IMG/VR virus record: IMGVR_UViG_3300008110_007313
Length of the DNA: 64,000 nt
From: a virus
Lineage: Duplodnaviria; Caudoviricetes
Reading direction: 5' to 3' (one strand)
Positions 22,623 to 43,089 of this stretch are shown piece by piece. The first letter of the stretch is position 1. Each line of letters begins with the position of its first letter. The notes beneath the pieces were generated by a model that was given only the letters and a program-made list of their open reading frames with translations, ran no database searches and was not told the origin of the DNA. Made by a program: the position numbers and the translations under genes.

Positions 22623-23054
22623 ATGTTACAAATAATAACATCTCTTAGTGATGACCTTGAGGCATTGATCCGGGACGATCCTGTTCGACCTGAGATTCCT
22701 GTCAGCGACCGAGTTAATCAGAACTCAAGAATCTACATGCTCAAAGAAGGGGACAAGACGCAGGCCGTGACCTGTGTGAAGTTCTTGAACACAATTCCCG
22801 AGGCAGTGGATGACTTGGTTGGTTTGGTTGGGAGTGCCACAACTGCGGTATTTTACACTATTTGGTCGTATTCGGCAGGTGCTGGACGCTCGCTGATTCA
22901 AGAGGCCCAGAAGTCGATTGAAGCTGAGTTTCCCGGAATCGATACCTACGTTACCTTGAGTCCAAAGACCGAGATGGCTCGTCGCTTCCATCTAAAGAAT
23001 GGTGCTGGTGTGTACCGCGAAAATTCTACCACTGTGAATTACATCTATAAGTAA
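22623..23054 (+). CDS. minimal malonyl-CoA decarboxylase-like GNAT-fold protein
   Basis: TAVFYTIWS-GRSLI-EFPGIDTYVTLSP and RFHLKNGA resemble MCD motifs. Confidence 0.65.
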   Translation: MLQIITSLSDDLEALIRDDPVRPEIPVSDRVNQNSRIYMLKEGDKTQAVTCVKFLNTIPEAVDDLVGLVGSATTAVFYTIWSYSAGAGRSLIQEAQKSIEAEFPGIDTYVTLSPKTEMARRFHLKNGAGVYRENSTTVNYIYK

Positions 23055-25413: not shown

Positions 25414-25584
25414 ATGACCGCAACCATAGCACGACTACTGGAACGCCTGGCTGAAATGTTCCCCAAGCAAGATTATCAATCACGTTTGGACCGCTACCTG
25501 AACAGCAAAAATGTTCAAAGCACGGCCGAGTTAGAGCACTGGGCACGCCAGTACGATCACAACCAACGCGGGTGGTCAATATGA
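25414..25584 (+). CDS. DUF3563-like small protein (not in track)
   Basis: LLERLAEMFPKQDYQSRLDRYLNSK-ELEHWARQY; TAAATA at 25390 and AAGGA RBS. Confidence 0.65.
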   Translation: MTATIARLLERLAEMFPKQDYQSRLDRYLNSKNVQSTAELEHWARQYDHNQRGWSI

Positions 25585-25673
25585 AAAAAGCACTGCAAAC
25601 AATTGTGGATTTTTTTATTGAGTACGGCGAATACCGAGCCAAGACTTACCACAAGTACAAGTCTTGGTATTGA
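25581..25673 (+). CDS. 30-aa peptide (not in track)
   Basis: MKKALQTIVDFFIEYGEYRAKTYHKYKSWY; ATGA-coupled. Confidence 0.5.
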   Translation: MKKALQTIVDFFIEYGEYRAKTYHKYKSWY

Positions 25674-33285: not shown

Positions 33286-33561
33286 TTACTTTTTAGATGT
33301 GGTAGCTGTGTAGGCTTTCATGATGCCTTCACCAAATTTGGTGTAGTCAAATTTCATAGCGTCTTGTGTGGCCTTGACCATTTCTGTGGTCAATGTGGTA
33401 AATGTGTCCATGCTCACTTTGGTGGCCTTTTTGGTGTAGTCAGCTTGAGCATCAATGAACTTGATCATTGCGTCTTTGGCTGTTTCATTTTGAACAAAAG
33501 TATTCACGAAAGTCTTTTTACCGGTTTGTACGGTGTCGATGATTGCGTCTGCTGTAAACAT
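33286..33561 (-). CDS. phasin-like helical protein
   Basis: 91 aa, amphipathic helix-rich (AMIKFIDAQADYTKKA); AGGAG RBS; PhaR-type box upstream. Confidence 0.55.
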   Translation of the reverse strand: MFTADAIIDTVQTGKKTFVNTFVQNETAKDAMIKFIDAQADYTKKATKVSMDTFTTLTTEMVKATQDAMKFDYTKFGEGIMKAYTATTSKK

Positions 33562-33640
33562 GTGTTTCTCCTAATTTAAGCGAGTTTGCTATAGGACCCG
33601 GCCTATCCAGCGTCCTATGTTGTATTATATATGATAATTT

Positions 33641-33655
33641 TGCTGCATTGCAACA
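33641..33655. promoter_or_regulatory. PhaR-type operator overlapping the -35 region of the phasin-like gene promoter
   Basis: TGCTGCATTGCAACA; reverse complement contains TGCAATGCAGCA, matching TGCRNYGCASMA. Confidence 0.55.
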
Positions 33656-33736
33656 TATTTTCAGCACTTTAGTGACCATTCACTAATTTTAAATACATTG
33701 GCTGTGTCGATAGTAAATAGTATACAGGAGAACTTT

Positions 33737-34048
33737 ATGCTAAAAGCAATTTTTGATTGGTTTAAAAAACCCAGCCCTGCGGCACAAGCGCCAGCAGTAC
33801 AACCAGAAGCTGTGCCCTACAAAGTAGAAGCACCTGCTCAGGTTGCCCCAGTGATAGAAGCCGCACCTGTTGTGGCCGCACCTGCTGACGTTGGCAAACC
33901 TGCAGATGACCGAGTAGAGGCCACTGCCCGACCTGCTCGCAAGCCCCGAGCCAAGCCAGCGGCAAAACCGGCAGCTGGATCAGCAACAAAACCGGCAGCG
34001 ATCACAGCAGCCAAAAAGCCCCAAGGCCGCAAGCCAGCACAAAAATAA
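33737..34048 (+). CDS. Ala/Pro/Lys-rich low-complexity protein
   Basis: TAAATA at 33714, AGGAG RBS; KPAAKPAA repeats. Confidence 0.7.
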   Translation: MLKAIFDWFKKPSPAAQAPAVQPEAVPYKVEAPAQVAPVIEAAPVVAAPADVGKPADDRVEATARPARKPRAKPAAKPAAGSATKPAAITAAKKPQGRKPAQK

Positions 34049-42778: not shown

Positions 42779-42870
42779 TTGTTTTCTCCTTTATTAAGCA
42801 AGATGACTTTTGAAATGTAGCCCGACCATCGGCACTACAAACATATTTATACAGGAAATCTCAACTCTTG

Positions 42871-43089
42871 TCAAGATTTTTCGATATTTTTTATTTCGTA
42901 ATCGCATGCAACCCAGGTCATAGCAAAAAGAGTAAAATGCTCTGGGTGATTTAACCCAAGTCGATATTTTAAGCCTTTGGCAACTTTGGTTGTGTAAGGT
43001 ATCTTGTAGCGGTTGGCCCAGGCGTTAACTGTATCTTTGAGACTATCGAAACTGTCCATGCTTGTGACAATATCAAACTCAATGTACAT
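42871..43089 (-). CDS. small hypothetical protein (...F-x-x-x-W family)
   Basis: 72 aa; HFTLFAMTW. Confidence 0.65.
   Translation of the reverse strand: MYIEFDIVTSMDSFDSLKDTVNAWANRYKIPYTTKVAKGLKYRLGLNHPEHFTLFAMTWVACDYEIKNIEKS

Follow-up and report, generated by a model that had tools for sequence, protein, structure and literature searches.

A predicted PhaR-type operator upstream of a phasin-like gene in a freshwater jumbo phage

Can a phage gene be wired to the sensor with which its host follows its own carbon store? This question is raised by a locus in a 64-kb stretch of viral DNA (hereafter the window; Duplodnaviria; Caudoviricetes), which was taken from the IMG/VR record IMGVR_UViG_3300008110_007313 and in which the gene of a 91-amino-acid (91-aa) protein lies on the minus strand behind a promoter overlapped by a palindrome. 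Abundant freshwater bacteria have in polyhydroxybutyrate (PHB) a major store of carbon and energy, and the phasin gene phaP follows this store by a known mechanism: free PhaR blocks the promoter, and when PHB granules sequester PhaR, the promoter opens. In the present study, the viral gene is proposed to encode a phage-specific phasin-like protein placed under the control of host PhaR through a PhaR operator, a reading that is drawn from sequence and to which a probability of roughly 60% can be assigned. It is carried by the anatomy of the cassette, the conservation of the operator in relatives, the identity of its motif with the boxes of host phaP and phaR genes, the lack of a PhaR in near-complete relatives and a leader whose hairpins covary.

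The operator and its conservation

The cassette is composed of the following elements:

33640-33656, no strand assigned: putative PhaR-type operator, a 17-bp near-palindrome reading ATGTTGC-AAT-GCAGCAA on the minus strand
33653-33648, minus strand: -35 element TTGCAA from the promoter scan, inside the operator
33629-33624, minus strand: -10 element TATAAT from the promoter scan, with an 18-nucleotide (nt) spacer from the -35
33619-33556, minus strand: ROSE_3-like leader, its length given as 58 nt
33572-33568, minus strand: Shine-Dalgarno (SD) sequence AGGAG, upstream of the 91-aa open reading frame (ORF)
33561-33286, minus strand: gene of the 91-aa protein (ORF), with its ATG at 33561-33559
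33266-33247, minus strand: terminator-like hairpin of 8 pairs (5 G-C) with a loop of 4 and a T-rich tail

The sigma-70-type promoter at 33624-33653 scored 10 of 12 in the promoter scan, and its position predicts that transcription would start near 33619-33616. Together with the leader, the ORF and the terminator-like hairpin, it forms a predicted one-gene unit. The core of the operator, TGC-N3-GCA, lies at 33652-33644, and the surrounding 15-mer at 33641-33655 (TGCTGCATTGCAACA on the plus strand and TGTTGCAATGCAGCA on the coding, minus strand) is a 7-1-7 palindrome with one mismatch that includes the -35. The operator spans the -35 and part of the spacer, which is a placement compatible with repression of the predicted promoter. 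A sequence-only reading of this DNA had described a box overlapping the -35 (TTGCAA) of a TATAAT promoter with a helical 91-aa protein downstream, and the coordinates, the promoter scan and the AlphaFold model agree with that description. A sigma-54 promoter was also considered and was rejected, because neither the spacing nor the half-sites agree with it.

The palindrome was compared with two sets of experimentally defined PhaR sites. DNase footprints in Bradyrhizobium led to the PhaR consensus TGCRNYGCASMA, and the PhaR site of phaP4 in this organism likewise overlaps the -35 (PMC6201568). In R. eutropha, the sites verified by electrophoretic mobility shift assay (EMSA) form degenerate palindromes around one central nucleotide, YTKNTGCRNYGCANMAR (PMC12849132). 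The window site agrees with the former at 12 of 12 positions and with the latter at 16 of 17. Moreover, a weight matrix built from 29 distinct boxes upstream of Polynucleobacter phaP and phaR gave the phage site a score of 23.4 bits, the median of the host boxes being 21.0 bits, the runner-up within the window 10.9 bits and the best of 30 shuffles 17.5 bits. No second copy of the box sequence occurs elsewhere within the window.

Polynucleobacter came into consideration as a candidate host group through a metagenome-assembled genome (MAG) of this genus that contained one stray phage contig, and 26 genomes of the genus were searched. Phasin_2 genes were present in all 26. In most of 25 genomes, the main PhaP1-like gene was preceded by ATGTTGC-N3-GCAACAT or a near variant, which lay 9-10 nt ahead of TATAAT, and a second class of phasin genes had 2-3 boxes upstream. 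In five complete genomes, the 15-mer with at most one mismatch was counted 12-24 times per strand in each genome, where the reversed control gave 0-5, and boxes lay directly upstream of phaR in all five, which is, as far as sequence can tell, a classic autoregulation signature. In one genome, further box-bearing upstream regions included those of sdhC, sucC, ilvD/edd, malonyl-CoA decarboxylase (MCD), a branched-chain amino acid permease and atpI. This distribution suggests that the PhaR of Polynucleobacter serves a broad, pleiotropic carbon-metabolism regulon resembling that of Bradyrhizobium. As side observations, the PhaR-type 15-mer stands at some 15-25 places per 2-Mb genome (G003, G006, G016, G020 and G024), LrgA being another gene with such a site upstream, and the full-length MCD gene of genome G003 has a PhaR-type box 148 nt upstream (locus L137).

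The conservation of the box upstream of homologues, which had been named as a check on the sequence-only reading, was followed through 69 distinct upstream sequences of relatives. In 45 of them, a perfect TGC-N3-GCA core was kept, at positions -85 to -110 relative to the ATG. Among these 45, the arms TTGC and GCA were invariant, while the central triplet took 13 forms, and the distance from the operator end to the -10 was 10-11 nt in 40. Many relatives had the perfect palindrome TGTTGCA-N-TGCAACA. Furthermore, a syntenic orthologue with 34% protein identity retained ATGTTGCAATGCAATAT, 8 nt ahead of a TATAAATA box, and in four of five near-complete relatives the sole perfect box in 320-364 kb preceded the phasin-like gene. 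A search for a PhaR domain in the five relatives that are 92-100% complete found none. The site thus fits both experimental consensus sequences and the palindrome of host phaP and phaR, overlaps the -35 and is conserved in a family whose near-complete members are without their own PhaR, and the earlier suggestion of a PhaR-type box holds at the level of sequence; that it is a PhaR-type operator needing a host protein as its reader is well supported in silico. Two further forms were seen among the relatives. The box-less relatives L039, L040, L045, L046, L049, L076 and L015 carry a TTGATT or TTGATC -35 at the same distance from TATAAT and can be regarded as natural operator-less variants by their sequence, and TGCTGCGACCGCACA, with a four-base centre, is found further upstream in L013, L021, L025, L051 and L085.

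The 91-aa protein and the leader of its gene

The 91-aa protein belongs to a large family. In a large protein collection, 1356 homologues were found at E <= 0.01, most of them 80-92% identical and nearly all metagenomic, on contigs of up to 360 kb, and an exhaustive search gave 149 clusters at 50% identity. At least 80 loci were present in IMG/VR, several of them in records with lengths of 320-364 kb and a completeness of 92-100%, and the gene neighbourhoods of the relatives, with ClpP, radical SAM and UvdE genes, are those of related jumbo phages. A search with the family profile in 80 further Polynucleobacter genomes returned no homologue. Since homologues lie in phage contigs and none in these 80 genomes, the gene appears to be phage-specific rather than recently copied from a host phasin. 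In addition, tblastn searches with the 91-aa protein, a host PhaP and the orthologue P0281 against 50,697 GenBank phage records found no phasin and no member of the family.

The AlphaFold model of the protein consists of three helices (residues 4-22, 26-70 and 73-89) with a mean pLDDT (the predicted local distance difference test score) of 87. The mean hydrophobic moment of 0.30 is above that of 99% of shuffled sequences (0.19 +/- 0.04), and a soluble, amphipathic helical protein without membrane segments is predicted. Among 47 diverse members of the family, Phasin_2 was the commonest weak Pfam match (12 of 47, best E 8e-4), and the phasin family TIGR01841 was the top NCBIfam family (5 of 47). 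The divergent orthologue P0281, which shares 34% identity with the window protein (E 9e-19), scored 26.5 bits against Phasin_2 (E 7.8e-6), where the curated cut-off is 24.9 bits. Of two further members, P0285 was above the cut-off with 26.1 bits, and P0282, whose locus is syntenic with that of the window, scored 24.7 bits. The register was consistent in the most divergent subgroup, in which protein residues 5-70 correspond to profile positions 30-94. The protein is therefore probably phasin-like, a remote branch of Phasin_2 reached through intermediate orthologues, and is not filed as a member of that family.

Between the promoter and the start codon, a full-model match to the Rfam family ROSE_3 (RF02523) was found at 24.1 bits (E 0.006). 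Matches at the same position were found in 5 of 18 relatives, with 21.4-36.5 bits; an Rfam search over the whole window gave nothing at E <= 0.1, E-values scaling with the length searched. The first hairpin of the leader (33618-33591) has a bulged G. In the second, the SD AGGAG is paired with the anti-SD sequence CUCGCUU (33584-33578) so that one G is bulged, and the leaders of relatives set CUUGCUU against AGGAG. Folding gave a minimum free energy of -17.2 kcal/mol with a z of -2.6. For a test of covariation, 26 leaders were placed in a plain MAFFT alignment, and the structure tested was derived from one aligned sequence. In this alignment, 85.5% of the cells were paired, compared with 35-56% in slid controls, and 40 cells were compensatory, compared with 15.7 +/- 3.6 in shuffles, none of 500 being as high. 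RNAalifold on a MAFFT alignment returned 3 pairs only. The computed mean unpaired probability of AGGAG was 0.17 at 5 C and rose to 0.46 at 42 C. The leader can be described as a ROSE-like, thermometer-type RNA of two predicted hairpins, not filed as a member of ROSE_3.

Neighbouring genes and other loci

Around the cassette, the window contains phage and auxiliary genes, including those of ribonucleotide reductase, radical-SAM enzymes, UvdE, ClpP and Hsp20. The features that touch on the present question are as follows:

33737-34048, plus strand: divergent partner gene (ORF, 103 aa)
33670-33685, no strand assigned: intergenic inverted repeat TAGTGA-N4-TCACTA of the divergent gene pair, 15 nt upstream of the PhaR-type box
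42778-42323, minus strand: phage hsp20 (Pfam HSP20, 3e-16)
22623-23054, plus strand: MCD-like gene (143 aa; Pfam MCD)
25414-25673, plus strand: micro-protein operon of a 56-aa protein (FP..YQSRLD..YL motif) and a 33-aa protein

The divergent 103-aa protein is composed of an amphipathic N-terminal helix (MLKAIFDWF), a conserved APYKVE motif, an Ala/Pro-rich linker and a basic, Lys/Pro/Ala-rich tail of the KPAAKPAA type. No Pfam or PHROG family was found for it, and no informative PHROG for the 91-aa protein. A protein of this architecture adjoins the phasin-like gene in most relatives; in some, the N-terminus resembles a membrane anchor instead, or a Cys-rich insert is present. The tail is reminiscent of the histone-H1-like tails of PhaF, PhaM and AlgP. 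The inverted repeat between the two genes has conserved arms and a variable centre in nearly all relatives, the box-less ones included; the window contains it once, it is nearly unique in two complete relatives, and host genomes show no enrichment for it. A CIRCE element was considered for this repeat and was rejected from its spacing and half-sites. Beyond the divergent gene, the phage contigs L001-L004 (22-239 kb) carry CsgG- and CsgF-like proteins, a FecR-domain protein, a fatty-acid desaturase and a CHASE2-guanylate-cyclase protein, which is an unusual set of auxiliary genes.

The region upstream of hsp20 (42780-42875, minus strand) has a TTGACA-type promoter and a two-hairpin leader like that of the phasin-like gene. 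This leader reads GUGCCG...CGGGCUAC, followed by CUUGCUU set against AGGAG, and Rfam gave a weak freshwater-2 match only. The micro-protein operon of the window has no PhaR-type box upstream; in two relatives, a homologue of this operon has such a box beside an ATAAATA late-promoter-like motif (L144, G028:16516; L147, G029:115703).

The sequence-only reading had also joined the MCD-like enzyme to the phasin-like gene, as parts of a system with which the phage would draw on stored carbon. The gene itself is real, its product matching the C-terminal domain of Pfam malonyl-CoA decarboxylase with 30 bits (cut-off 23.2) over only 46 residues, but it lies 10 kb from the phasin-like gene and is without a PhaR-type box. 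Furthermore, searches for PhaC and for two PhaZ families in the five near-complete relatives found no synthase or depolymerase of polyhydroxyalkanoate (PHA). As the relatives have no PHA enzymes and the MCD-like gene is box-less and distant, a carbon-tapping system is unsupported by the gene content.

Proposed mechanism, rival readings and known systems

The cassette would belong to a T4-like freshwater jumbo phage, and its sigma-70-type promoter would be read by host RNA polymerase early in infection. In a host free of PHB, the palindrome (about -38 to -24) would be occupied by free host PhaR, which would keep the promoter shut; in a PHB-storing host, the granules would draw PhaR off and the phage promoter would open. 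The ROSE-like leader would probably act as a second, translational gate, in which the U(C/U)GCU of the second hairpin pairs with the Shine-Dalgarno sequence until temperature or another RNA-melting condition releases it. The 91-aa product would most likely coat PHB granules or another hydrophobic surface in the manner of a phasin, and once the surfaces were filled, PhaR would be displaced back to DNA and close a self-limiting loop as in the host. We infer the transfer of the phaP mechanism, with PhaR binding, repression, granule binding and a benefit to the phage, by analogy with the host gene.

A number of observations, set out in this paragraph and the next two, count against a PhaR-controlled gene of a phasin-like protein. 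From public RNA runs, which were used as assembled contigs, a metatranscriptome contig covering 33517-33619 continues into the promoter-like sequence of a relative and shows neither transcription nor a start. The ROSE_3 scores of the window and of all relatives are below the gathering score of 43, for which reason the leader is named ROSE-like and not a member, and ROSE_3 was not found in five Polynucleobacter genomes. The matches of the phage gene to species genomes are two, both on short or stray contigs in MAGs. The form of the box, being common to the phage and R. eutropha, points to PHB-storing Burkholderiales as a candidate host group and not to a single genus. The G+C content is 44.4% in the sampled Polynucleobacter DNA, 44.7% across the window and 42.9% in the phage loci. 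Contigs with the phage gene that had been binned into MAGs were L085 (Haliscomenobacter, 70 kb), L086 and L124 (Polynucleobacter, 6 kb and 1.9 kb). They come from bins of two phyla in one study and are probably mis-binned phage DNA, neither prophages nor proof of a host.

The rival that survives best keeps the PhaR-controlled promoter and changes the product, which would be not a granule protein but a stress or chaperone-like protein or another early factor timed to a carbon-replete, stressed host. The window protein gave no match to Pfam Phasin_2 (PF09361) at E up to 1, below the curated cut-off, and hhalign of the family alignment with 18 Polynucleobacter PhaP sequences gave a weak match (probability 24%, 22 columns). 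The Pfam registers disagree among some members, so that part of the phasin signal may be composition. Searches by fold are uninformative for so simple a predicted helical protein: Foldseek against the Protein Data Bank (PDB) found nothing at E <= 0.001, a profile search of PDB sequences found designed helical proteins only, and a shape-based cluster search returned the family's own viral clusters and unrelated helical proteins. A feature-based cluster search returned the own viral clusters, with a bacterial cluster (13% Phasin_2) only at rank 69 with a score of 0.87. The Aeromonas hydrophila PhaP structure 5IP0 aligns to model residues 1-70 (root-mean-square deviation 2.3 A over 70 residues, Z 7.1, VIA-align), but with 10% identity and at rank 20 amid tied unrelated helical proteins; this broad tie in Z indicates a common helical arrangement at most, and the match was not used as evidence for a phasin. 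In addition, the leader architecture is shared with the phage hsp20, ROSE elements normally serve heat-shock genes, and a host homologue and PHA enzymes of the phage are lacking in the genomes searched. On the other side, phasin families rank first in two libraries, two orthologues are above the Pfam cut-off, and a phaP-type product is the simplest explanation for a phaP-type operator. The description of the gene as phasin-like has weak to moderate support: divergent orthologues are above the Pfam cut-off, the window protein itself is not, and the match of the family to host PhaP is weak. As phasins have been reported with chaperone-like activity, a non-granule product and a phasin overlap as explanations; a product of the former kind is judged unlikely, though it deserves serious attention.

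A poorer chance is given to the explanation that a different regulator, of phage or host, has its operator in the palindrome, or that this is a plain palindromic -35, its likeness to PhaR sites being coincidental. Exact matches to TGCRNYGCASMA in the 64 kb are at chance level (1 found, 1.45 expected), as are matches to the 17-mer with at most one mismatch (2 found, 1.5 expected). In about one third of the relatives, the box is degenerate or absent; about 10 have a degenerate arm or a four-base spacer, and about 7 have an ordinary TTGATT -35 in place of the box, which indicates that the operator is dispensable in some lineages. Moreover, the second conserved inverted repeat, 15 nt upstream, implies other factors at the locus. 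Although the loose published consensus is at chance level, the score with the host matrix and the conservation in relatives indicate that the box exceeds chance, for the score lies above the median of the host boxes and 12 bits over anything else in the window. The same motif marks phaR and several phasin genes in host genomes, and published footprints and EMSAs assign it to PhaR; a regulator specific to the phage would require its own gene and would need to bind the very 17 bp that PhaR recognises. That the box, instead of regulating the gene, survives as an inert relic of a host phaP promoter once captured, with which its architecture is nearly identical, or acts as a decoy that soaks up PhaR on replicating genomes, which would suit one strong site per phage genome, is very improbable, since the arms are invariant through 13 central triplets and down to 34% protein identity and a decoy has no need of a -35 overlap at a fixed distance from the -10.

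With PhaR control of a phasin-like gene as the preferred reading, a wider picture may be sketched tentatively, although it is itself doubtful. Freshwater jumbo phages of a widespread family would sense PHB through PhaR and temperature or stress through the leader, and would deploy a viral phasin that, with the divergent protein and its PhaM/PhaF-like tail, could remodel or re-tether PHB granules so that the stored carbon serves the phage. Such a phage would be the first virus known to take part in the control of PHA storage. The family is large (more than 1300 protein variants, contigs of up to 360 kb), and any function that it has would be ecologically common.

Four known systems can be compared with the cassette. 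In R. eutropha phaP1, PhaR represses until PHB granules titrate it (PMC12849132). The phaP1-PhaR system of R. eutropha H16 (Cupriavidus necator) resembles the phage cassette in that a small amphipathic protein is encoded behind a sigma-70 promoter which degenerate palindromes, with one central nucleotide, flank or cover. The phage differs in being a jumbo phage whose relatives are without phaR, phaC and phaZ; it has one operator where phaP1 has three, its product is of 91 aa and below the Pfam cut-off where that of R. eutropha is of about 190 aa, and a ROSE-like leader has been added. The PhaR regulon of Bradyrhizobium diazoefficiens shares the full 12-position site and, at phaP4, its position on the -35, and is pleiotropic and carbon-centred like the Polynucleobacter sites. 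It differs as an alphaproteobacterial, chromosomal regulon in which the footprints lie on cellular genes only. The leader agrees with ROSE_3 thermometers in a full-length match, a 5' hairpin with a bulged G and U(U/C)GCU set against AGGAG around a bulged G, and departs from them in scores below the gathering level and in standing on a non-chaperone gene.

Auxiliary genes of cyanophages have PhoB boxes upstream of pstS and phoA, and NtcA sites. The likeness is that a gene of a lytic phage bears a site for a host regulator of nutrient status, so that its expression follows host physiology. The differences are that PhaR senses a storage polymer by sequestration on granules, that the host group is another, and that the cyanophage products are transporters or enzymes, whereas a structural, coat-like protein is proposed here. 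A phage gene under a regulator of host nutrient state is of a known kind; a literature search found no published report of a virus reading or manipulating PHB. The cassette is compact, combining a putative PhaR operator and a thermometer-like leader with a minimal phasin-like protein of 91 aa, and could easily be tested in Cupriavidus necator. If the wiring is true, viral gene expression in lakes would be tied to the carbon-storage state of the host, and the cassette would be a second and mechanistically different case, beside the PhoB and NtcA sites of cyanophages, of a lytic phage borrowing the nutrient sensor of its host.

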